64,000 bases of DNA from Candidatus Moraniibacteriota bacterium. Its GTDB lineage: Bacteria > Patescibacteriota > Minisyncoccia > Moranbacterales > UBA1568. The notes below the pieces were generated by a model. The model was not told where the DNA came from. It made no database searches and saw only the letters and a list, made by a program, of their open reading frames with translations. A program made the position numbers and the translations under genes. The stretch covers positions 200,081-264,080 of the forward strand of contig JAUSGT010000002.1 of the NCBI GenBank assembly GCA_030648835.1. The letters are read 5' to 3'. The stretch's first letter is position 1. Every line of letters starts with the position of its first letter. Positions 3,023-52,427 of this stretch are shown in pieces.

Positions 3023-3244
3023 AAGGTCTTTATTACTTCTTTTCTTCTCGTGGCAGCCATCGAACATTTCTGACTCACTCTGTCGAACGGGGAGCTGTCC
3101 TGTCGAGACCCTGTCTACCGGCAGGCAGGCATCCGCCCGCCTCGACGAGCGAGAGCGAGGCCGGGTCACGCTCGACCGTTACCGACTCGCTCATCACAAA
3201 TGTTACCGCTGCCTGCCAAAGAAGAAAATAAATACATAAAGACC
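3023..3244. mobile_element. MITE-like repeat family A, copy 2
   Basis: Same core as copy 1 with an extra internal GC-rich hairpin segment, bracketed by an imperfect ~35-bp inverted repeat. Sits between the DUF167 gene and comEC. Confidence 0.6.
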
Positions 3245-3260
3245 CAAAGGGAATGGTGTT

Positions 3261-4745
3261 ATGTTGATGAAGGACCAGGTTTTTCTTTTGGCGTGCCTGG
3301 GGTATATCGGGGGAGTCTTTGCGGGCTCTTTTTTTGTTGTTCCGGGGTGGATGCTTTTTCTCGGAGCTGCTCTGTGGGGCGCGCTTTTTGTAACGTTTCC
3401 GAGAAAGAATATTTTTCTCCTTTTCTTTCCTTTTGGGCTGTTCCTTTTTGGCACTTTTTCCGTTACACAATCCCTCGAACATTTTCACGAGGAGAATATG
3501 CGGATGGGCGAAGTGTCCGGCATAGTGCGCGTTGTTAGTGATCCGGAAGAGAAAAGTTTTTATAACCAAATCATCATCCGGATGGAAACATGTGAGAGTG
3601 AAGTGTGCCCATCGGAAAAAATCCTTTGGCAAGCGCCGAAAACCGTGGCCGTTGTTTCTGGCGCACGAATGGAATTTTCCTGTGCATTAGAACTGCCGGA
3701 AAACTTTGATCCGACGTTTGATTATCGGATGTTTCTGGCTAAGGATAATGTTGGGTATGTTTGTCGCAAGGCGTCATCGTGGGTCACTTTGCCAGAAGAC
3801 GATCGAACACGTTTCGCGAGAATCTTTTTTTGGCCGAAACACGCTTTTGAAGAAGCTCTTGGCAAAAGCTTGCCCCAGCCGGAAGCGGGACTGGCTCTCG
3901 GGCTCATCGTGGGGGGTGACAATCGTTTGCCTGAAACGCTGAAAACAGCTTTCGCCCGGGTAGGACTGACTCATATCGTTGCTATCTCAGGATACAACAT
4001 CGCGCTCATCGCTCAAGGGCTTTTGATTTTCGGTATTGGTATTGGATTGTGGCGGAAGCAAGCGATTTTTCTGGCGGCTCTGGGGGTTATATTTTTTGTT
4101 TTTCTTGTGGGTGCTCCGGCTTCGGCTGTTCGCGCTGGCGTTATGGGACTCTCTGTGTTCGCCGCTTTTTTTGTCGGTCGGCTGTCGCGTGGAGTGAATA
4201 TGCTTCTTTTGGCGGCGGTATCTATGCTCTTTTTTCAGCCACTCCTTCTGCGTTATGATGTCGGTTTTCAATTATCGTTTTTGGCGACACTTGGCATCAT
4301 CGTCATGGCGCCATTTATGGATCGATTTTTATCCAAAGAATTTTTTGGCAAAGGTTTTCTCGAGATATTTTTTCTTACTTTTGCCGTGGAGCTCTTTGTG
4401 ATGCCGGTACTCATGTATCAATTTCATATTTTTTCTCCCTGGGCGCTTCTGACCAATGTCCTCTTGCTTCCGCTGGTACCGTACGCTATGGCGCTCGGGT
4501 TCGTTTCGGCTGTCGCGTTTTTTATTTTGCCGGGACTCCATATGCTACCGGCCACTCTGACGTATTTTTTCTTATGGGTTATCACGTATGTTGTGGAGCG
4601 ATTTGGTGCGTTACCGAGCGCCACGATAGAGGTGTCTCTCGGCGGGGTGGCGCTTCTCGCGTGGTATGTTCTTCTGTTTTTTGGTATCGTGATAATGAAA
4701 AAACAGCTGCGACGGAAATATGTCCAAACGAAAGATCTTTCTTAG
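3261..4745 (+). CDS. comEC: ComEC/Rec2 competence membrane channel (DUF4131 + competence domain)
   Basis: Polytopic membrane protein with GLTHIVAISGYNIALIA-type competence-domain motifs. It overlaps the next ORF by 26 nt in a different frame. Confidence 0.8.
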   Translation: MLMKDQVFLLACLGYIGGVFAGSFFVVPGWMLFLGAALWGALFVTFPRKNIFLLFFPFGLFLFGTFSVTQSLEHFHEENMRMGEVSGIVRVVSDPEEKSFYNQIIIRMETCESEVCPSEKILWQAPKTVAVVSGARMEFSCALELPENFDPTFDYRMFLAKDNVGYVCRKASSWVTLPEDDRTRFARIFFWPKHAFEEALGKSLPQPEAGLALGLIVGGDNRLPETLKTAFARVGLTHIVAISGYNIALIAQGLLIFGIGIGLWRKQAIFLAALGVIFFVFLVGAPASAVRAGVMGLSVFAAFFVGRLSRGVNMLLLAAVSMLFFQPLLLRYDVGFQLSFLATLGIIVMAPFMDRFLSKEFFGKGFLEIFFLTFAVELFVMPVLMYQFHIFSPWALLTNVLLLPLVPYAMALGFVSAVAFFILPGLHMLPATLTYFFLWVITYVVERFGALPSATIEVSLGGVALLAWYVLLFFGIVIMKKQLRRKYVQTKDLS

Positions 4746-5568: not shown

Positions 5569-5652
5569 CTTATCTGTATTTTAGACTCTGCGTGCCCTTC
5601 GATTCCGGTTCAACAACCAAAAGTAATCTTTTGTCATTATTTCACCTCTCAG

Positions 5653-5728
5653 AAGCGCTCTCGGCTGGCGAAAAAAGCAAACACTAATCGACGGCGGGAA
5701 TATTCCTTTTTTCGAACCGAGAGCGCTC
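5653..5728. repeat. Palindromic repeat family Y, copy 1
   Basis: Long imperfect palindrome centred on aatcgacggcggga. A second copy lies at 46619-46696. Confidence 0.45.
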
Positions 5729-5857
5729 CTTCAGTCATTGTGAAACAAACGCCAAAAAATTCTTTTGGTTGCTGAGTTTATTATTACAAGTCTTGCCATT
5801 TCTGTTTTTTTATGTCATGCTTGTTTTCAGCAAAGTAATTGGTTGAGGAAAATACTT

Positions 5858-11400: not shown

Positions 11401-11488
11401 CCGGCTTTGCAGTATGTAACAGAGGGCGTCTTGAAACTTGAGACGCCTTTTAACTTTTTTATATAATTTTTTCTCTAAAGCCTCCCTT

Positions 11489-11617
11489 GCAAGCAACCTT
11501 CTCGGGAGTCATTTGTCCGTCCAGCGACGGACTTCACTTATGAACTTTTTTTGATCCGTCAAAGTGATGGCACCGTGCTCAAAAAAACTTCAACTCTCCC
11601 GAGAATGTTCTTGCGAC
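11489..11617. mobile_element. MITE-like repeat family X, copy 1
   Basis: About 128 bp with ~22-bp terminal inverted repeats (gcaagcaaccttctcgggag...ctcccgagaatgttcttgcgac). Second copy at 49505-49631. Outer flanks form a short inverted repeat. Confidence 0.55.
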
Positions 11618-11714
11618 TGGAGGCTTGTCCTGAACAGGTAGAAATTAGTGCGGGGTTGACCACCGTCGCTCGCTTGCCACGGTCGTTCGCGAAACGACGT
11701 GGTGAGGGACGCGG

Positions 11715-39591: not shown

Positions 39592-39762
39592 TTTACAAAA
39601 CTTTCTTTTTTCATTCATCGTATTTCCCGAACACTTCTGACTCACTCTGTCGAACAGGGAGCTGTCCTGTCGAGACCATCCGTCACGCTCGACTGTTACC
39701 GACTCGCTCGTCACAAATGTTACCGATAAATACGAGGTGAAGAAAAAAGGAGTCTTTGTAAA
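39592..39762. mobile_element. MITE-like repeat family A, copy 3 (lacks the central hairpin segment)
   Basis: Core cgaacacttctgactcactctgtcgaacagggagctgtcctgtcgagacc...gtcacaaatgttaccg bracketed by an imperfect ~38-bp inverted repeat. Sits immediately 3' of gdhA. Confidence 0.6.
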
Positions 39763-40979: not shown

Positions 40980-41798
40980 ATGAATACTCATGGAACAGAC
41001 CGCTCGGTACCGACTATGCAACAGGTGAAGCAGCTGGGGATTTTACTTGGATTCATCCTGGAAATTGTGACCAGGATCGTTACACGCTATTTCTTCGCCT
41101 TGAACTCTGACGAAGCGAAGGCTACGCTCCAGAACAAAGGAGCCCTTTCCAAGAAAATCAAGGTTGCGCTTGCGCCGGTGTTTATGATGGCAGTCGATGA
41201 ATATGCTGCCCAACGAACGTATTGGGAAGGCATCTATCTCACTCACTACGGCATGGCTGCGGATTTCGGCGAAGTAACGGTGCCGGAGAAACCGACAGTC
41301 GGCAAGTGGCGCCTCATTTTCATTCTGAAGGGATTGACGATGAATCACGCGGCGGCCATGTACCGAAAAATTCTTGCGGCCATCGATCCACCGTGGCAAC
41401 TGGTACAGTATATCGATGATTTGGACGCGCAGATTCCTTACAACATTCGTACTTCGGCAGAATCCTATGCTCTTTGGGTACGGGATGGGCAAGAGGCTGA
41501 CGAGGAATTTCGTGCTCAAACGACCAGCCAAGCCGATCCGAATCAATTGATTGGTGTCACGCCGCTCGAGCGTCTCGTTCATGGAGCAGCCCATTTTGTT
41601 GAAACCAAACAACACCTCGACGAGAAAGGGATTACTATCTGTTCAGGTTCGCGCAATGCGGATGGCTGCGTGCCTTGCGTGTGCTCGTATCCGGACAGTC
41701 GCGAGGTGTGCGTGTTTTGGTACAATCTGGGCTATTCGTTTTCCGCTGGCGGTGTCCGTCGAACAGTAGCGCTGCCGCAGGCGGCGCAGACAGCTTAA
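40980..41798 (+). CDS. DGR target protein (variable C-terminal ligand-binding region)
   Basis: 272-aa ORF whose last ~40 codons are the VR (SRNADGCVPCVCSYPDSREVCVFWYNLGYSFSAGGVRR). N-terminal hydrophobic segment. Confidence 0.75.
   Translation: MNTHGTDRSVPTMQQVKQLGILLGFILEIVTRIVTRYFFALNSDEAKATLQNKGALSKKIKVALAPVFMMAVDEYAAQRTYWEGIYLTHYGMAADFGEVTVPEKPTVGKWRLIFILKGLTMNHAAAMYRKILAAIDPPWQLVQYIDDLDAQIPYNIRTSAESYALWVRDGQEADEEFRAQTTSQADPNQLIGVTPLERLVHGAAHFVETKQHLDEKGITICSGSRNADGCVPCVCSYPDSREVCVFWYNLGYSFSAGGVRRTVALPQAAQTA
41645..41766 (+). repeat. DGR variable repeat (VR)
   Basis: 122 bp that differs from the TR at 16 positions, all where the TR has A and the VR has T or G. Confidence 0.8.
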
Positions 41799-42106
41799 CC
41801 TCGATTCTCAACTCTTTTTCTCTTTTTTCCCCGCTGTGCGCGTGCGCGCAGCGGGCTTTTGTTTTTGTCTTTTTCCATCCTTTTCTCGAAAGCTTTGAGA
41901 AGTTGTTGTATACTACAGAAGGTTGTTAAGCCAGTCTTGCTTGGGCAAGATGATGGTTTGCCAAGAACTGAAACTGCCTGTGAGTATTTACGCATAGATT
42001 TTTCATGGTAGGAAATGATGCGACACAGCGCTCGTGACCACGAGGAACACAGATGCTCTGGCGACAGAGGTTCGGTGATAGGGATGGATACTCACAGTAA
42101 AGATGG

Positions 42107-42228
42107 AGGTTCGCGCAATGCGGATGGCAACGTGCCTTACGTGAACTCGAATCCGGACAATCGCAAGGTGAACGTGAATTGGTACAATCTGGACAATTCG
42201 AATTCCGCTGGCGGTGTCCGTCGAGAAG
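42107..42228 (+). repeat. DGR template repeat (TR)
   Basis: Non-coding cognate of the VR with A at all 16 variable positions, rich in AAC/AAT codon-equivalents. The overlapping ORF 42015-42281 is probably not a gene. Confidence 0.8.
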
Positions 42229-42249
42229 TTTCAACACAAGAACATCCCG

Positions 42250-42624
42250 CTAGAGTGCGGGATTTTGTGTCAGGTATTTGATCCAACCATTCGTCATTTT
42301 GGAAGTTTCAACGAGGAGAGCAGCTACCTCGATGTATGATTTTTCAGGGATGACCTTTTGTTCATATTCTATGCGCACCAGGTGTTTCAGGATTTCCAGA
42401 GAGACGCGTACATGCTCGAGTATTTCTCGTTTCTGATATTTCTGCGTGAGCGAGGCGCGAAGGATACCGCTCATGGTTTCTAGCGTGAGATGCTCAATAA
42501 CCTGGTGGATACCGAGTTTATCTCGTTTGGGAATCTTGTGTCCAATTTGGTACAGAGTGGCATATACTTGTTTGATACTATGAACAATCGAAATATCATT
42601 ACTCCGAAGGGGGGGGGGTAACAC
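42250..42624 (-). CDS. avd: Avd-like accessory variability determinant (four-helix-bundle family)
   Basis: 124-aa helical protein between the TR and the RT. Size and placement are typical of DGR Avd, though it is divergently oriented. The N-terminal PPP is encoded by a C10 tract. Confidence 0.55.
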   Translation of the reverse strand: MLPPPLRSNDISIVHSIKQVYATLYQIGHKIPKRDKLGIHQVIEHLTLETMSGILRASLTQKYQKREILEHVRVSLEILKHLVRIEYEQKVIPEKSYIEVAALLVETSKMTNGWIKYLTQNPAL

Positions 42625-42715
42625 TAGAGGAAATTTTTTTCATGATATTATCAGTGTAGCAAATCTTCTCGCCGCTTGGAAAGAGTTTCGGAAGGGAAAA
42701 AGGAAAAAAGGTGAT

Positions 42716-43672
42716 GTGGCTTTGTTTGAATTTCAACTGGAAGACAACTTACTGCAACTGCATCAAGAGCTGGCTTCCCAGACCTACAGGCACGGTCCCT
42801 ACGAAGGTTTTTATGTTTCTGATCCCAAGTTGAGGCACATTCACAAAGCTAGTGTGCGCGATCGAATTCTGCATCAAGCGATTTTCCGTGTGCTATATCC
42901 GATTTTTGACGCGCATTTTATTTATGATTCGTATTCATCGCGCGTTTCCAAGGGTACCCACTTTGGCGTGAAGCGCCTCTTGCAAGCCTGTCGCAAAGTA
43001 AGCGAGAATTGGAAAGCTCCGGCGTACGCGCTGAAATGTGATATACGCAGGTTTTTTGATTCGATAGATCATGCAATTTTGCGCAAGCTCGTCGTAAAGA
43101 AAATTACCGACCATAAGACGCTATGGTTGATCGATATCATTTTTGCAAGCTTTGAGAAAGAAAAAGGGAAAGGACTGCCGCTCGGAAATGTCACCAGCCA
43201 GCTTTTTGCCAATATCTATCTCAATGAGCTGGATCAATTCGCGAAACATACATTGAAGGCGAGGCATTACTTCCGTTATTGCGATGATTTTATTATTGTT
43301 CACCGCAATCGGATTTTTCTTGAAGAAGCATTGGTAAAAATAAGAGCCTTTGTTTCTGAAACATTGTTTTTGGAACTGCATCCTTATAAAGTGGAAATCC
43401 GCAAAGTCAGTCAGGGAATCGATTTTCTGGGCTATGTCATTTTGCCACACCGGACAGTCGTGCGGATGGCTACCAAGAGCCGTCTACTACGAAAGTTAAA
43501 CGATGCCCGAAAAAACTTTCGGACCGGGAAGATAACAGGAGAGACGTTTGGAAGTATTATACATTCTTACCTCGGCGTACTTTTACACTCACGGAACCGG
43601 AGAATAAGAAGATGGGTATGGAAGTTACGCGAGTTGACACAAAGCGGAGATAAAAATGTAAAGTGGCGGTGA
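42716..43672 (+). CDS. DGR reverse transcriptase
   Basis: RT motifs DIRRFFDSIDH (A), LPLGNVTSQLFANIYLNELD (DGR-type motif 4/B) and RYCDDFII (YxDD). Conserved N-terminal residues continue in frame upstream to about 42647 without a canonical start codon. Confidence 0.85.
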   Translation: MALFEFQLEDNLLQLHQELASQTYRHGPYEGFYVSDPKLRHIHKASVRDRILHQAIFRVLYPIFDAHFIYDSYSSRVSKGTHFGVKRLLQACRKVSENWKAPAYALKCDIRRFFDSIDHAILRKLVVKKITDHKTLWLIDIIFASFEKEKGKGLPLGNVTSQLFANIYLNELDQFAKHTLKARHYFRYCDDFIIVHRNRIFLEEALVKIRAFVSETLFLELHPYKVEIRKVSQGIDFLGYVILPHRTVVRMATKSRLLRKLNDARKNFRTGKITGETFGSIIHSYLGVLLHSRNRRIRRWVWKLRELTQSGDKNVKWR

Positions 43673-43717: not shown

Positions 43718-43971
43718 GGCGGGCCGCCACGACTGGGTCGGGCGAGCCTCGCCAAAACGGCGGGAGTTTCATGGGTGAAACGTCCGTTTTTCTTTTTCTA
43801 GGAAGGTCGGCAATGAAAATTGTTACTCTCCCTAGGGGAAATGTTCATTAAAAACAAAAACCAAAACAAAAAACAAAAACCTTTGTTTTCACCAAAAACA
43901 AGGCAAGTTCTCTTGCCTTGGCCTCTCGAAAAAGAGGCCAGATAGGCCGCTAACTCTTTAGCGGTCTTTTT
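43718..43971 (+). ncRNA. Candidate non-coding or leader transcript (GC-rich structured 5' part, CA-rich tract, terminator)
   Basis: Bounded by a promoter and a terminator hairpin (ccgctaa...tagcgg + T-run). Contains an (AAAAC)n-like tract. Only very short ORFs. Confidence 0.3.
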
Positions 43972-44011
43972 ATTGATTTAAAGCCTGTTCTCGGCTATAC
44001 TGGGCAATAAG

Positions 44012-44141
44012 CCCGGTAGTAGAACTTCGAAAGTTTTGGTATAGTAACGATATCTTCGGTATTCCTGCAATATGGGCTTTGTTGAAGCAAAAAATATAAT
44101 TCTTTTTTAAAACTTCGTTTGTTCGAAGTTTCACTACCGGG
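44012..44141. repeat. Inverted 20-mer pair R1/R2 (cccggtagtagaacttcgaa ... ttcgaagtttcactaccggg) abutting the murA start codon
   Basis: 18/20 complementary arms about 90 bp apart. The right arm ends 1 nt before the murA ATG. Confidence 0.55.
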
Positions 44142-44142
44142 T

Positions 44143-45405
44143 ATGGAAGTTTTTGAAATCGAGGGCGGAAAACGGCTCAAAGGACGGATTGCTGTTTCGG
44201 GACTGAAGAATGCCGCAACGCCCATTATTGCCGCGACGCTTCTCTCCAAAGAACCATGCGTCTTGAAAAATATCCCTCGTATCGAGGATGTTTTTCGCAT
44301 GCTGGAAATCTTAGAGAGCATGGGAGCGACAGCCAGGTGGCAGGGGCGGTCAACGGTGATGATCGATACGCGCGCGGTTGATCCAAAAAAAATAGACCAG
44401 GACAAAGTCAAGCGCTTACGTTCGTCGATTTTTCTTCTGGGAGCTTTAGCCGGTCGTTTTGAAAAATTTCATTTGCGGCAACCCGGCGGGTGTGTCATCG
44501 GCGCGCGTCCGGTAGAAACGCACATTGATGCTTTGACAAAACTGGGAGTGAAGATTGTCTCGGATGAAAAAGGGTATGCCGTCGATGCCGGAGGGAGGCA
44601 GAGTGCCAACATAGTGCTCAAAGAGTTTTCCGTGACAGCGACGGAGAATGCGATGCTTTTGGCCGCGACGCTTCCCGGAGTTACACAGATAAAAATTGCC
44701 GCTTGTGAACCGCACGTCGAAGATCTTGGACATTTTCTCGAAAAGATGGGCGCGCGGATCGAAGGACTGGGAACCCATACGCTTCGGATAACGGGCAAGA
44801 AACGACTCATCGGTGTGACACATACGATCGTTCCCGATCACAACGAGGCCGCGACATTTCTCATTCTTGGCGCGGCTACCGGAAGCGAAATCGCTGTCGT
44901 CAACGCTCGGAAAGAACACTTGGATATTGTTCTTGAGAAATTGGAGGAGTTTGGGGTTCGTTTCACGGTAAAGAAAAATGAGATTACGGTGCATCCCGCC
45001 AAAAAATTACGAGCTGTTTCAAAAGTCGACACCCGCACGTATCCCGGAGTTCCTACCGAGACGCAAGCGCTCTTCGGTATGCTCGCGACGCAGGCGGAGG
45101 GGGAGACACTCATTTTTGAAACTTTGTATGAAGGGCGTTTCAACTACATTCCCGAACTGGTGAAGATGGGAGCCAGAGCGACTATTCTCAATCCGCATCA
45201 GGTTATTGTTTCAGGGAAGACGCCACTCAAAGGGACAGTCATAAAGAGTTTTGATTTGCGCGCGGGGGCGACGCTTATTATCGCCGCGCTGGTCGCTCGG
45301 GGGAAGACGATTATCGAAGATATTTATCAGGTGGATCGCGGCTATGAACGTATCGAAGAGCGTCTGCAGAAAATTGGCGCGCGGATACGCCGGGTAGATT
45401 TGTAG
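44143..45405 (+). CDS. murA: UDP-N-acetylglucosamine 1-carboxyvinyltransferase
   Basis: MEVFEIEGGKRLKGRIAVSGLKNAATPIIAA EPSP-synthase-fold N-terminus. Start at the internal ATG. Confidence 0.9.
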   Translation: MEVFEIEGGKRLKGRIAVSGLKNAATPIIAATLLSKEPCVLKNIPRIEDVFRMLEILESMGATARWQGRSTVMIDTRAVDPKKIDQDKVKRLRSSIFLLGALAGRFEKFHLRQPGGCVIGARPVETHIDALTKLGVKIVSDEKGYAVDAGGRQSANIVLKEFSVTATENAMLLAATLPGVTQIKIAACEPHVEDLGHFLEKMGARIEGLGTHTLRITGKKRLIGVTHTIVPDHNEAATFLILGAATGSEIAVVNARKEHLDIVLEKLEEFGVRFTVKKNEITVHPAKKLRAVSKVDTRTYPGVPTETQALFGMLATQAEGETLIFETLYEGRFNYIPELVKMGARATILNPHQVIVSGKTPLKGTVIKSFDLRAGATLIIAALVARGKTIIEDIYQVDRGYERIEERLQKIGARIRRVDL

Positions 45406-45417
45406 AAAAAAGATATG

Positions 45418-45540
45418 CCCGGTAGTAGAATTTCGACCAGGCAATTTCAGGAGTGTATACACTAAGTTTAAACCAGAGGATTAAGAAGTGGCATAAGTTT
45501 CTTTGATGTATTAAATACATTGTCGAAATTTCACTACCGG
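45418..45540. repeat. Inverted 19-mer pair R3/R4 (cccggtagtagaatttcga ... tcgaaatttcactaccggg) abutting the mreB start codon
   Basis: Same architecture as R1/R2, with compensatory C:G to T:A changes in both arms. Confidence 0.55.
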
Positions 45541-45542
45541 GT

Positions 45543-46559
45543 ATGAAATCGATGTTTGTACGAAAAATCGGTATTGATCTCGGGACGACGAATACCCTGG
45601 TATTCGTGCCCGGCAAAGGAGTCGTCGTCAATGAACCTTCGGTGGTGGCGATTTCTTTGCTTGAGAACAAAGTGTTGGCTGTCGGGAACGAGGCCAAAGA
45701 AATGCTGGGGCGCACGCCGGATACGATCATCGCCAGCCAGCCACTGAGAGATGGAGCCATCGCCGATTACCGCGTGACGGAGGCGATGCTCAAATATTTC
45801 TTGAATCGCGTGAGCGGTCGGATTCGTTTTTTTCGTCCGGAAGTGGTCCTCTCTATTCCGGCCGGTGTCACTTCAACGGAGCGACGTGCTGTCATTGACG
45901 CGGCGCTCAAGGCCGGTGCCAAAGCGGCGTACGTGGTGAAGGAGCCGATTTTGGCGGCCATAGGCGCGGGTATCCCGATTCACGCGGCGCAGGGGAATAT
46001 GATCATCAATGTCGGTGGTGGCACATCGGAGATTGCTATCATTTCTCTTGGTGGTATCGTGGCGGCGCACAGCGCCCGCGTTGGCGGTAACCGGATTGAT
46101 CAGGCCATTTCCGATTACATCAAGCGCAAATACAGTTTGGCTATCGGTGATCGGACAGCAGAGGAAATCAAAATAAAAATCGGATCAGCCATCGCTCAGG
46201 TGAAGGAGGACCACGTAGAAGTGCGCGGTCGCGATCTGATGGGGGGATTGCCGAAAACCGTCCTCATTTCTTCCAACGAAGTGACGGAAGCTATTCAGGA
46301 TGAGTTACGGGAAATCATCAATGTTATCAAGACTGTCCTTCAAGAAACACCGCCGGAATTGGCGGCGGATATTATGGACAAGGGGATGGTACTTTCGGGA
46401 GGGACAGCTCGGCTCAAGCATTTGGATCAGCTTATTTCCAAAACTATCAACGTGCCGTGTTATGTGGCGGATGACCCAGCATTGTGCGTGGTGAAAGGCA
46501 CCGGCATCGTACTGGAGAATCTGGAAGTGTATAAAAGGAGCATTATGCTTGCAAAATAG
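45543..46559 (+). CDS. mreB: Rod shape-determining protein MreB
   Basis: IGIDLGTTNTLVFV actin-fold phosphate-1 motif. Confidence 0.9.
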   Translation: MKSMFVRKIGIDLGTTNTLVFVPGKGVVVNEPSVVAISLLENKVLAVGNEAKEMLGRTPDTIIASQPLRDGAIADYRVTEAMLKYFLNRVSGRIRFFRPEVVLSIPAGVTSTERRAVIDAALKAGAKAAYVVKEPILAAIGAGIPIHAAQGNMIINVGGGTSEIAIISLGGIVAAHSARVGGNRIDQAISDYIKRKYSLAIGDRTAEEIKIKIGSAIAQVKEDHVEVRGRDLMGGLPKTVLISSNEVTEAIQDELREIINVIKTVLQETPPELAADIMDKGMVLSGGTARLKHLDQLISKTINVPCYVADDPALCVVKGTGIVLENLEVYKRSIMLAK

Positions 46560-46618
46560 CTTCTTAGTTTTGAGACGGTCTATAATTTCAAAGATTTTTT
46601 GTTTCTGCTCCAGACTTG

Positions 46619-46696
46619 CCAAGGCTTTTGGTTAGCGAAAAAAATCGCCTCCAATCGACGGCGGGACACAGCTCTTTTTTCGAACCAAGAGCCTTG
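46619..46696. repeat. Palindromic repeat family Y, copy 2
   Basis: Imperfect palindrome sharing the core agcgaaaaaa...aatcgacggcggga...cttttttcgaacc with the copy at 5653-5728. Confidence 0.45.
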
Positions 46697-46796
46697 CCTC
46701 AGACAAGTGGAGCAACCAAAAAAAATCTTTGAAATTACAAGACATGGGGGTTTCTCTGATTTCCAGCCTGATTCATGATTCTTAATTCCCGATTCT

Positions 46797-49480: not shown

Positions 49481-49504
49481 AAGTTATTTTTTATAGTATT
49501 GATC

Positions 49505-49631
49505 GTAAGCAACCTTTCCGGGAGCCTTTCGTTCGTCCAGCGACGAACTCTCTGTGTGAACTTTTTTCGATCCGCCGAATCGGCGGCACCATGCTCGAAA
49601 AAACTTCAACCCTCCCAGAAAGATTCTTACG
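49505..49631. mobile_element. MITE-like repeat family X, copy 2
   Basis: High similarity to 11489-11617. TIRs gtaagcaacctttccgggag / ctcccagaaagattcttacgac. Flanked by tagtatt/aatacta. Confidence 0.55.
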
Positions 49632-49669
49632 ACAATACTACCTACACTTTAGTTTTTATAATTTCTATT

Positions 49670-52173: not shown

Positions 52174-52427
52174 CCCAGATTTTTTCGAAAACATCAAATT
52201 GATATCCCTGTGCTCTTTTCGCCCCCGTCTTTACCCAGCGTCTGGTAAAGCGGGTTTTTTATTACCAAACGAAGTGAGTGTAGTGAAAGTAGACTTTCAC
52301 TACCGAGCGCAGTGCCGGTAAAATCGGGTTGAATACCCCGCGGCTTGCCGCGGATATGAAACGAGCTTGAGCTCGTTTCAGGGTCCAGGGTAAGCCCATG
52401 GGGTAAATACCTGTTATTTTATATTCT

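Follow-up and report, generated by a model that had tools for sequence, protein, structure and literature searches.

The window, a 64-kb stretch of DNA, carries two pairs of 20-bp arms, each lying one base from an ATG. One pair (W1) precedes murA, which encodes a 420-amino-acid protein of the EPSP_synthase family, and the other (W2) precedes mreB, the product of which has an MreB_Mbl match. An initial annotation of this DNA had placed two arm pairs directly against the starts of these genes, and both are present in the sequence. A 19-mer of the arm, with three or fewer mismatches allowed, occurs four times in the window, where 0.03 occurrences are expected. W1 and W2 are 124–130 bp in size and, as that annotation also held, their interiors are unrelated to each other in sequence. 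A public contig of the same organism terminates exactly at position 45541, the end of the W2 right arm, and an exact-sequence look-up of the MreB protein returned no record.

All features described here lie on the forward strand. In W1, the left terminal inverted repeat (A-type; CCCGGTAGTAGAACTTCGAA, listed as GTAGTAGAA) spans positions 44012–44031, the non-coding interior spans 44032–44121 and the right terminal inverted repeat (B-type; TTCGAAGTTTCACTACCGGG, reverse complement GTAGTGAAA) spans 44122–44141. The distal copy of a target-site duplication, at 44008–44011, is decayed to TAAG and reads TATG in the relatives L119 and L121; the proximal copy, TATG at 44142–44145, contributes its ATG (44143–44145) as the murA start codon. 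A TATAAT oriented toward murA is found within the interior at 44095–44100.

W2 begins with a distal duplication copy, TATG at 45414–45417, located 8 nt past the murA stop codon (45403–45405). This is followed by an A-type left repeat (45418–45437, CCCGGTAGTAGAATTTCGAC), a non-coding interior (45438–45521) carrying a small hairpin (ATGTATTAAATACAT) that adjoins the B arm, a B-type right repeat (45522–45541, GTCGAAATTTCACTACCGGG) and a proximal TATG at 45542–45545, the ATG of which (45543–45545) is the mreB start codon. Insertion of W2 made a short upstream ORF (45415–45465) that runs from the duplicated ATG into the left arm and encodes MPGSRISTRQFQECIH followed by a stop codon. Equivalent upstream ORFs, reading MPGS(R/E) at their start, exist in most copies of the family described below and vary in length; W1 has lost its upstream ATG.

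Arm pairing and the native murA–mreB context

The arms are 90% complementary in W1 and in W2. In both, positions 10–11 are non-complementary, with AG opposite TC giving A·C plus G·T/G·U. The compensatory change pointed out in the initial annotation is real: C or T at arm position 14 is matched by G or A in the partner arm. Among 68 distinct copies of the family, 91.8% of cells in the arms are paired, position 14 shows all four Watson–Crick pairs with 67 of the 68 copies paired, and positions 4, 19 and 20 covary too. Predicted RNA folds of W1 and W2 reach −41.2 and −42.9 kcal/mol (z of −4.5 and −5.5 relative to shuffled sequences), and single-strand DNA folds reach −23.9 and −21.3 kcal/mol (z of −5.4 and −5.2).

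The conserved tandem mismatch, together with the strong arm covariation, suggests that a hairpin or cruciform serves as a substrate. The earlier proposal of selection for pairing stands in the broader form that either selection or a copying process keeps the arms complementary. As to the type of helix, it is reasonable to think of a hairpin or cruciform in DNA, but a strand-specific 5′-UTR element is not borne out: copies occur in either orientation, and a test for RNA-level selection found no excess of G·U over A·C on the mRNA strand (7 versus 7).

Upstream of W1 and outside the element, a terminator-like hairpin with a T-run (43944–43967), conserved in L119 and L121, closes the preceding transcription unit. 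The native murA promoter, TTGATT-17-TATACT (43973–44001), comes next and is conserved in L119, L121, L122, L123 and L124. This promoter sits upstream of the W1 left arm, so both arms would be transcribed, and it gives no support to a main promoter between the arms, where the initial annotation had noted plausible −35/−10 hexamers.

The element is absent from relatives whose MurA proteins are 73–85% identical to that of the window. The empty murA site of L122 reads TTGATT-17-TATACT-gtccagt-ATG, with TATACT 7 nt before the ATG, which is, as judged from its sequence, a leaderless arrangement (TATACT-N7-ATG). At the empty mreB site of L124, which reads TAA-a-TATG-aaaccc-ATG, mreB lies 11 nt past murA and a TATG marks the insertion point. 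The mreB site is empty in L123 as well, where murA and mreB overlap. The arms of W1 are intact, whereas inserts at the same site in relatives are decayed. A different repeat-flanked segment in the murA–mreB spacer is inverted between L121 and L122.

Gene-less copies and full-length elements in Patescibacteria

The same arms bracket segments of 66–142 bp in many genomes of Patescibacteria (CPR), and the genomes JACRFI, CAYHAF and JBBTUK each contain several of them. Whereas the initial annotation had named occurrence of the motif nowhere else as grounds for refutation, the motif is found in hundreds of places. Of 74 copies, 47 have the same four bases on both sides, compared with 0–5 of 74 in shifted registers (p about 1e-65). 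The duplicated target is mostly TATG, and its ATG is the host gene start codon; thus, in a reading that the initial annotation did not offer, the arms abut the ATG because the target-site duplication contains it.

Insertion at start codons is strongly favoured, with 36 of 38 TATG-type insertions of gene-less copies located at true gene starts (p = 2e-14) against a backdrop of 426 other intergenic TATG/CATA sites versus 236 free TATG starts. Nearly all targets are NATG or ATGN sequences at a host start codon, and no extended consensus was found beyond YATG. A leaderless-type −10 box is moderately enriched (31/92 versus 131/746), and because this enrichment is just 2.4-fold, start-site targeting cannot be the whole story.

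Interiors are generally unrelated among copies, the shortest being 22–35 bp, and gene-less copies occur in either orientation relative to the downstream gene. W1 itself is 80% identical to a copy in another Moranbacteria genome (L078:5207–5341) that has an unrelated gene downstream. Near-identical interiors at unrelated loci are also seen among several copies inside single genomes. Between W1 and the L078 copy, the A/B asymmetry of the arms runs the opposite way with respect to the interior, and the interior keeps the same orientation to the gene despite the swapped arms. The family members precede 91 host genes spread over 104 Pfam families, including tRNA synthetases, ribosomal proteins, transporters and pilus genes, and murA and mreB are hosts only in this window. 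This distribution removes the link to cell-wall genes that had been drawn from the two window copies. No conserved length or stop position was found for the upstream ORFs among copies, and Rfam gave no match at the elements under gathering or permissive thresholds.

Scanning of metagenomes revealed 111 elements of 289–331 bp with the same arms, in 96 of which an intact GIY-YIG ORF is the only ORF and fills the space between the arms. The predicted nuclease is a single-domain protein of 82–102 amino acids, with the Pfam GIY-YIG domain spanning residues 1–71. Its ORF is co-oriented with the host gene, starts either 19–28 nt inside the element or at the duplicated ATG, and stops 15–20 nt short of the element end. 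Among the 96 full elements, target-site duplications are identical in 70, an ATG lies in the 3′ flank of 92, a host ORF follows in 87, and 33 have the A and B arms exchanged with respect to the interior. A further example, L019:3027–3331, is 305 bp long, has the same arms and a CATA duplication, and encodes an 85-amino-acid GIY-YIG protein at 3050–3304 (Pfam E 2.7e-14).

The search for longer same-arm elements in the 115 genome loci yielded chance pairs and decayed partners only; an apparent 1.7-kb arm pair in L036 was rejected, as it lies within ordinary genes. Scans of viral contigs returned three single-arm matches and no long elements, and no GIY-YIG gene was matched anywhere in the 64-kb window. 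One gene-less copy (L056) keeps a C-terminal coding remnant of the GIY-YIG protein. The best solved-structure relatives of the CPR nuclease are UPF0213 proteins and SLX1, and an NCBIfam model for group I intron endonucleases scores far under its cut-off. Small GIY-YIG genes are widespread in CPR, and sources label them only ‘GIY-YIG nuclease family protein’.

W1 and W2 are thus very probably MITEs of tiny CPR transposons that target start codons, the full form of which measures about 294–322 bp, typically some 310 bp, and consists of the arms plus a GIY-YIG nuclease gene. The family displays terminal inverted repeats, a duplication of fixed 4-bp length, presence or absence at orthologous sites, ends shared with a coding element and related copies at unrelated loci, all of which are features that define MITEs. 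The nuclease gene is present in long elements bounded by these arms and missing from the window copies, so W1 and W2 would be non-autonomous derivatives. An integron attC site had also been considered and was dropped, as it would require an R′/R′′ core, which is absent, and the neighbours are housekeeping genes.

Proposed mobilization and alternative readings

We infer that the GIY-YIG nuclease is the putative transposase, because it is the only gene between the arms. The enzyme would recognize the hairpin or cruciform that the arms form on folding, the conserved mismatch at positions 10–11 included, and its cuts would mobilize full elements and gene-less copies alike. Insertion duplicates 4 bp of target, so that the element lands between the initiation signals of the gene with one copy of its ATG, on one side, and the gene with its own ATG on the other. 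Full elements are too tightly packed to hold a promoter or ribosome-binding site, and the captured start codon and host promoter would express the nuclease; the host gene may then be translated by re-initiation 16–21 nt past the nuclease stop codon. GIY-YIG enzymes act on DNA by hydrolysis, and no strand-joining activity is known for them; repair or ligation by the host would therefore be required to complete integration.

We put forward tentatively, at slightly less than an even chance, the complete model in which an Ssn-like GIY-YIG nuclease is the transposase of a roughly 300-bp element that captures start codons and leaves the host gene translationally coupled. That full elements lie at start codons and share the orientation of the host gene could be due in part to the persistence of those copies that are expressed, and not to the choice of insertion site.

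At the window locus, we likewise infer an RNA hairpin role for the gene-less copies. Transcription of murA would still start where it did in the leaderless arrangement, which would place the entire W1 hairpin in the 5′ leader of the transcript, and mreB, once about 10 nt behind murA, would now be parted from it by the W2 hairpin and the 16-codon upstream ORF. A related and compatible reading, not exclusive of the transposon explanation, is that the copies are mobile in origin but today are retained by the host, as RNA elements that set murA and mreB mRNA stability or translation, possibly through protection of the 5′ end, occlusion of the start until the upstream ORF is translated, or an RNase III site. 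The conserved upstream promoter is predicted to drive transcription through both arms, the predicted RNA stems are very stable, and in most copies an upstream ORF runs from the duplicated ATG into the stem. Retention by the host would also fit the intact arms of W1 at a site where the inserts of relatives are decayed, and the constant orientation of the W1 interior to the gene in the window and L078 despite swapped arms. Nevertheless, this reading is rather unlikely, given that copies lie in either orientation with unrelated interiors, that upstream ORF lengths and stops are not conserved and W1 has lost its upstream ATG, that G·U is no more frequent than A·C on the mRNA strand, and that inserts in relatives decay freely. 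A cis-regulatory RNA leader as such was rejected, as the family lacks a fixed orientation, a conserved core and related host genes.

Less probable still is that the GIY-YIG gene is a passenger and that a conventional transposase encoded elsewhere moves both long and short forms. The candidate mover would be a DDE enzyme that makes 4-bp duplications, such as those of IS1380/piggyBac, IS5 or IS701; the 4-bp duplication and the CCC...GGG ends are typical of DDE chemistry, and strand joining is, as noted above, an activity we do not know for GIY-YIG enzymes. However, no arm pair surrounds any other gene in the 115 genome loci or the 111 metagenome loci, and the nuclease gene, alone in 96 of 111 long forms, fits exactly between the arms. 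Homologous Ssn nucleases, moreover, recognize the hairpin repeats found on either side of the genes that encode them (PMC11893778). A DDE origin for the family (IS1380/piggyBac, IS5 or IS701) was dropped once the only ORF proved to be GIY-YIG.

It is highly improbable that the arms are recombination sites of an inverton acting as a promoter switch for murA and mreB. Inverted repeats do bracket a segment of about 90 bp upstream of each gene, the interior is inverted relative to the arm asymmetry between W1 and L078, and the other spacer segment mentioned above is flipped between L121 and L122. Yet target-site duplications and empty sites point to insertion rather than a resident switch, the murA promoter is not enclosed by the arms, long forms contain a nuclease gene in place of a promoter, and interiors are unrelated and as short as 22–35 bp. 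Even less credible is a dedicated RNA leader or paired operator coordinating cell-wall genes, which the two copies within 1.5 kb at murA and mreB had suggested and which is refuted by the host-gene distribution (91 genes, 104 Pfam families) and the empty orthologous sites of relatives with 73–85% identical MurA, along with the lack of an Rfam match and of fixed orientation.

If the transposase model is correct, the elements would form a class of their own in mechanism, distinct from those that rely on DDE, DEDD, HUH, serine, tyrosine or Cas1 enzymes, and would add a new nuclease family to the few enzymes that move DNA. An autonomous element of about 300 bp would be smaller than any autonomous transposon known to us, an extremely compact selfish element made up of a single 85-codon gene and its two 20-bp ends. 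Having neither promoter nor ribosome-binding site, it would live off host initiation signals and leave the host gene intact. The model would also provide the first evidence that Ssn-type modules of nuclease and hairpin repeat are real transposons, would make biological sense of the small GIY-YIG genes that are widespread in CPR, and would trace Ssn/NTS modules back to a transposon. In practical terms, the elements sit before essential genes, break assemblies and lead gene callers to extend ORFs, and the nuclease may serve as a structure-specific DNA tool.

Comparison with known systems

In the literature searched, we found no description of bacterial MITEs that target start codons or of a GIY-YIG element bounded by terminal inverted repeats. 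Several known systems share individual features with the CPR elements. Transposons of the piggyBac/IS1380 type, which use DDE enzymes, have CCC...GGG ends and a 4-bp target-site duplication, as do the CPR elements, but no DDE gene lies between the CPR arms and the target is not TTAA. Free-standing GIY-YIG homing genes (phage seg/mob and I-TevI relatives) are likewise selfish, reside between host genes and, as for the CPR nuclease gene, depend on host expression signals. Homing endonucleases, however, have DNA-binding domains, copy themselves into one cognate site via repair and lack terminal inverted repeats and target-site duplications, whereas CPR elements are found at more than 100 different genes.

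REP/REPIN sequences with their RAYT enzymes resemble the CPR family in their hairpin-forming repeats, their small structure-recognizing single-strand nuclease and their inverted doublet as the mobile unit. Transposition of the IS200/IS605 type makes no target-site duplication and uses HUH/tyrosine chemistry. The clear 4-bp duplication and the GIY-YIG enzyme rule out membership in this IS200/IS605–REP/RAYT group. Furthermore, RAYTs are single-copy host genes, but the CPR nuclease genes lie inside the mobile unit.

Correia elements of Neisseria, ERIC, RUP, BOX and Nezha measure about 70–150 bp and have terminal inverted repeats and a target-site duplication. Such MITEs adjoin genes, are co-transcribed with them and have stems that can form RNA hairpins. 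They derive from DDE insertion sequences, have other targets (TA for Correia) and, to our knowledge, are not tied to start codons. Bacterial MITE families such as Correia have been reviewed (PMC3184786). The CPR copies match this type in being short, gene-adjacent and hairpin-capable, with terminal inverted repeats and a duplication, but their autonomous partner is a 300-bp GIY-YIG element and their duplication holds the host ATG.

The closest known system is the Ssn/NTS pair of nuclease and repeat. Ssn is a single-domain GIY-YIG enzyme, defined by site-specific cleavage of single-stranded DNA only, and its gene is bracketed by NTS/SRM hairpin repeats (Chenal et al., Nat Commun 2025, PMC11893778). 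The same study likened this repeat–gene–repeat layout to an insertion sequence without showing transposition, proposed a domesticated role in transformation, and describes neither target-site duplications nor empty sites nor insertion at start codons (PMC11893778). Each NTS/SRM repeat folds on itself, whereas the CPR arms pair across the element. The SRM consensus pattern has no match in the 74 MITEs, 112 long elements or the window, using a script that finds SRM beside the Rhizobium and Photobacterium genes. The shared features are a GIY-YIG gene for about 90 amino acids between inverted repeats and many gene-less repeat copies in the genome. The CPR protein, a candidate member of the Ssn clade cd10448, also aligns with SRM-flanked homologues from Rhizobium and Photobacterium plasmids, with 36% identity to a Rhizobium Ssn homologue (E 1e-12). 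Finally, Ssn cuts single-stranded DNA next to its hairpin (PMC11893778), which fits a hairpin-recognizing role for the CPR nuclease.

Paired arms before murA and mreB and the family they belong to

The initial annotation described paired 20-mers adjoining the starts of two cell-wall genes, and both pairs are confirmed. The 20-bp arms of W1 (44012-44031 and 44122-44141) precede murA, which starts at 44143 and encodes a 420-aa protein of the EPSP_synthase family, and those of W2 (45418-45437 and 45522-45541) precede mreB (start at 45543, MreB_Mbl match), with a single T between right arm and ATG in both cases. The compensatory change that it reported is also present, as C/T at arm position 14 is answered by G/A in the partner arm. 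When up to three mismatches are allowed, an arm 19-mer matches only these four sites in the window (0.03 expected). Direct 4-base repeats lie at the element edges (W1, TAAG...TATG; W2, TATG...TATG). Compared with shuffled sequences, the two regions have much more stable folds as RNA (z = -4.5 and -5.5) and also as DNA (z = -5.4 and -5.2). Arm positions 10-11 are unpaired in both copies (AG facing TC). An Rfam search at W1 and W2 gave no match.

Searching one genome per species for the arm CCCGGTAGTRRAANTTCG returned at least 114 stretches. Among the matches listed, many plus/minus arm pairs spaced 35-100 nt apart occur in Patescibacteria MAGs, including Moran-, Portnoy-, Nealson-, Lipton-, Kaiser- and Paceibacteria and other lineages. 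Dropping nested pairs from these matches left 74 elements, W1 and W2 included, a sample in which decayed copies are under-represented because the search patterns needed well-kept arms. Of the 74, 47 have identical 4-bp flanks, versus 0-5 in shifted registers, and this restriction to the true register indicates a target-site duplication (TSD). Element lengths are bimodal (roughly 66-79 bp and 117-142 bp), and the interiors of subfamilies are unrelated. In several genomes the same interior recurs at different sites, and an element upstream of an unrelated gene in another Moranbacteria genome (L078) matches W1 at 80% identity over 137 nt.

Tandem arrays of roughly 70-bp gene-less copies (MITEs) of the family, with TATG between units, occur at two loci in other genomes (L183:911-1199 and L223:9435-9723). 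They read as a repeating 'MPGSENSTVRLWRTKDENVEFLLPG' frame and record successive insertions, each into the TATG that an earlier copy had duplicated. In the window, a mini-palindrome at 52277-52309, GTAGTGAAAGTAGACTTTCACTACCGAG, lies between convergent genes, away from any start codon; it resembles two fused cores of the B-type arm, one of the two arm kinds, and may be what is left of a family member after extensive deletion.

Selection for pairing, proposed from W1 and W2, or a copying process with the same effect gains support from covariation across 68 distinct copies. The first 20 arm positions are paired in 91.8% of cells, position 14 is occupied by CG (23), UA (22), AU (19) and GC (3) pairs, and positions 4, 19 and 20 covary as well. 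None of 500 shuffles reached the observed values, and slid registers collapse. Positions 10-11 carry A.C plus G.T in 63-64 of the 68 copies, one arm always reading GTAGTAGAA and the other GTAGTGAAA. That a mismatch persists while the positions around it stay complementary points to a substrate that is folded and bears a particular feature. G.U and A.C are equally frequent on the mRNA strand (7 versus 7), and thus nothing favours RNA over DNA as the paired form.

Insertion sites and their unoccupied counterparts

TATG-type MITE insertions adjoin a long ORF in 36 of 38 cases, and the remaining two run off their locus. The same loci hold 426 other intergenic TATG/CATA sites versus 236 unoccupied TATG gene starts, which gives the start-codon preference a binomial p of 2e-14. 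About ten MITEs form a second class, positioned at the 5′ boundary of a -35 hexamer in good TTGACA-N16-17-TATAAT promoters, with TTGA or CTTG as TSD. The two classes share a WTG core, and a search for a wider consensus around the insertion site found nothing further. A TAnnnT box of the leaderless type lies 5-8 nt upstream of the ATG at 31 of 92 targets versus 131 of 746 control starts (odds ratio 2.4, p = 6e-4), for which the opening ATG of each long ORF served as a crude prediction. This enrichment is suggestive, but it extends to only a third of the sites. Host genes are diverse (104 Pfam families across 91 genes). The start-codon bias may owe something to a preference of the enzyme, to the accessibility of promoter DNA and to the survival of those copies that are expressed.

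Crudely predicted Patescibacteria gene starts (66 loci plus metagenome loci) have T at -1 in 52-62%, a Shine-Dalgarno-like motif in just 9-13% and a TAnnnT box 5-8 nt upstream in about 18%, a pattern suggesting that initiation in these genomes is often leaderless or independent of a Shine-Dalgarno motif.

MurA homologues place the window organism in Moranbacteria, and seven orthologous murA/mreB loci were compared. In one relative (L122, MurA 85% identical), the arrangement TTGATT-17-TATACT-gtccagt-ATG leads into murA without an insert; this is the W1 empty site, in a leaderless arrangement. The window and two close relatives (L119 and L121) share the murA promoter, followed by 4-6 nt, TATG (TAAG in the window), the insert and TATG-murA. 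The murA-site inserts of L119, L121, L123 and L124 have decayed arms and differ in length, which indicates that the site has long been occupied, or has been occupied repeatedly. L124 shows the mreB empty site, murA-TAA-a-TATG-aaaccc-ATG, in which 11 nt separate the genes and TATG marks the point of insertion; murA and mreB overlap in L123.

Because the left arm of W1 lies downstream of the murA promoter, both arms should be transcribed. The murA mRNA would start at the former leaderless site with the W1 hairpin at its beginning; the distal ATG of W1 is mutated to AAG. A TATAAT at 44095-44100 inside W1, conserved in L078, could supply a second murA transcription start. Presumably once coupled to murA, mreB is now preceded by W2, together with an upstream ORF of 16 codons that runs into the left arm of W2; translation of this ORF would open the W2 stem.

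The murA-mreB spacers of L121 (5264-5409) and L122 (5300-5435) hold a different AT-rich insert flanked by repeats, its interior inverted between the two and its outer flanks in the same orientation; repeat-flanked intergenic segments of this lineage thus do invert over evolutionary time. Directly upstream of murA lies a diversity-generating retroelement (40980-43672) comprising a candidate target gene (40980-41798, 272 aa), a bAvd gene (42250-42624, minus strand) and a reverse transcriptase gene (42716-43672). A 118-nt repeat pair (41645-41762 versus 42107-42224, 86% identity) fits its variable and template repeats, and the retroelement genes are absent at the corresponding position in L119 and L121.

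Another structured repeat has two copies between genes (11478-11626 and 49500-49640), which share the core ...GCAAGCAACCTTCTCGGGAG...TGAACTTTTTTYGATCCG...TCRAAAAAACTTCAAC...CTCCCGAGAA..., with compensatory inner-stem changes (T/A versus C/G). A third intergenic family (5610-5775 and 46583-46737, the latter right behind mreB) has the conserved core GGCT.GCGAAAAAA...AATCGACGGCGGGA...TTTTTTCGAACC.AGAGC within 30-36-nt inverted repeats that differ in each copy. Neither family has an Rfam match. A fourth repeat, GAACATTTCTGACTCACTCTGTCGAAC.GGGAGCTGTCCTGTCGAGACCCTG.CTACCGGCAGGCAGGCATCCG..., occurs at 2575-2773, 3055-3215 and 39677-39725; one copy is bounded by a perfect 28-nt inverted repeat, and a public contig (L001) begins within the 39677-39725 copy, so this repeat too breaks assemblies.

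Long elements carrying a GIY-YIG nuclease gene

Upstream ORFs reading from the duplicated ATG led to a 305-bp family member in another genome (L019:3027-3331) with the same arms and the TSD CATA, whose ORF encodes a GIY-YIG nuclease (Pfam E = 2.7e-14). A 127-bp element (L056) retains the final 32 codons of a GIY-YIG-type gene. A metagenome scan for both arms spaced 241-301 nt apart, which likewise under-represents decayed copies, gave 111 loci, 96 of them with an intact ORF of 82-102 aa. The 64 distinct proteins are strongly conserved, with the consensus ..FYxYVLES..N..LYIGYT.DL.KRLKEHNQGLN.STK...PWKLIYYEACLNE.DAKRRE.YLKT.QG.RLLKRRLKEY, and their closest solved relatives are UPF0213 proteins and the structure-specific nuclease SLX1.

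These ORFs start 19-28 nt inside the element, right behind the 5′ arm, except for 13 that begin at the duplicated ATG, in frame across the arm; they stop 15-20 nt short of the element end, at times within the arm. The ORF thus fills the space between the arms, where a promoter or ribosome-binding site cannot fit. In ORF orientation, the 3′ flank carries an ATG in 92 of 96 elements, a host ORF follows in 87, and TSDs are identical in 70 (TATG 57, ATGA 9). The asymmetry between A-type and B-type arms is independent of ORF direction (63 A-first, 33 B-first) and of the host gene. The 64-kb window contains no GIY-YIG gene, and W1 and W2 are thus non-autonomous copies.

Relation to known mobile systems

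On sequence grounds, we conclude that the W1/W2 family is a MITE whose partner is a small nuclease-plus-repeat module. A stronger reading, that the GIY-YIG nuclease is itself the transposase, with start-codon capture, is tentative. The literature search found no description of the family, its coverage being thin for subscription journals, so that a prior description is possible.

Correia-type MITEs, REP/RAYT systems and homing endonuclease genes share some features with the family, but each fails a defining one. The closest comparison is Ssn, a single-domain GIY-YIG protein of about 94 aa that cuts single-stranded DNA beside NTS/SRM hairpin repeats; these repeats bracket the ssn gene and occur in hundreds of scattered copies, a layout that its authors liken to an insertion sequence, transposition not being demonstrated there (PMC11893778). 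Homologues of the Patescibacteria nuclease on Rhizobium and Photobacterium plasmids (36% identity, E = 1e-12) have perfect SRM motifs on their flanks. On the Rhizobium plasmid pRheCIAT894e (L237:567-1098), an Ssn-type GIY-YIG gene is bracketed by inverted repeats that run for over 100 nt to either side and whose 33-nt perfect core holds the SRM motif, with three more SRM copies within 600 nt downstream, beside an IS4 transposase gene. None of the W1/W2-family elements examined matches the published SRM pattern. Each Ssn repeat folds on itself, whereas the two arms of the Patescibacteria element pair together, and these elements display duplications, empty sites and start-codon insertion, none of which the Ssn paper reports.
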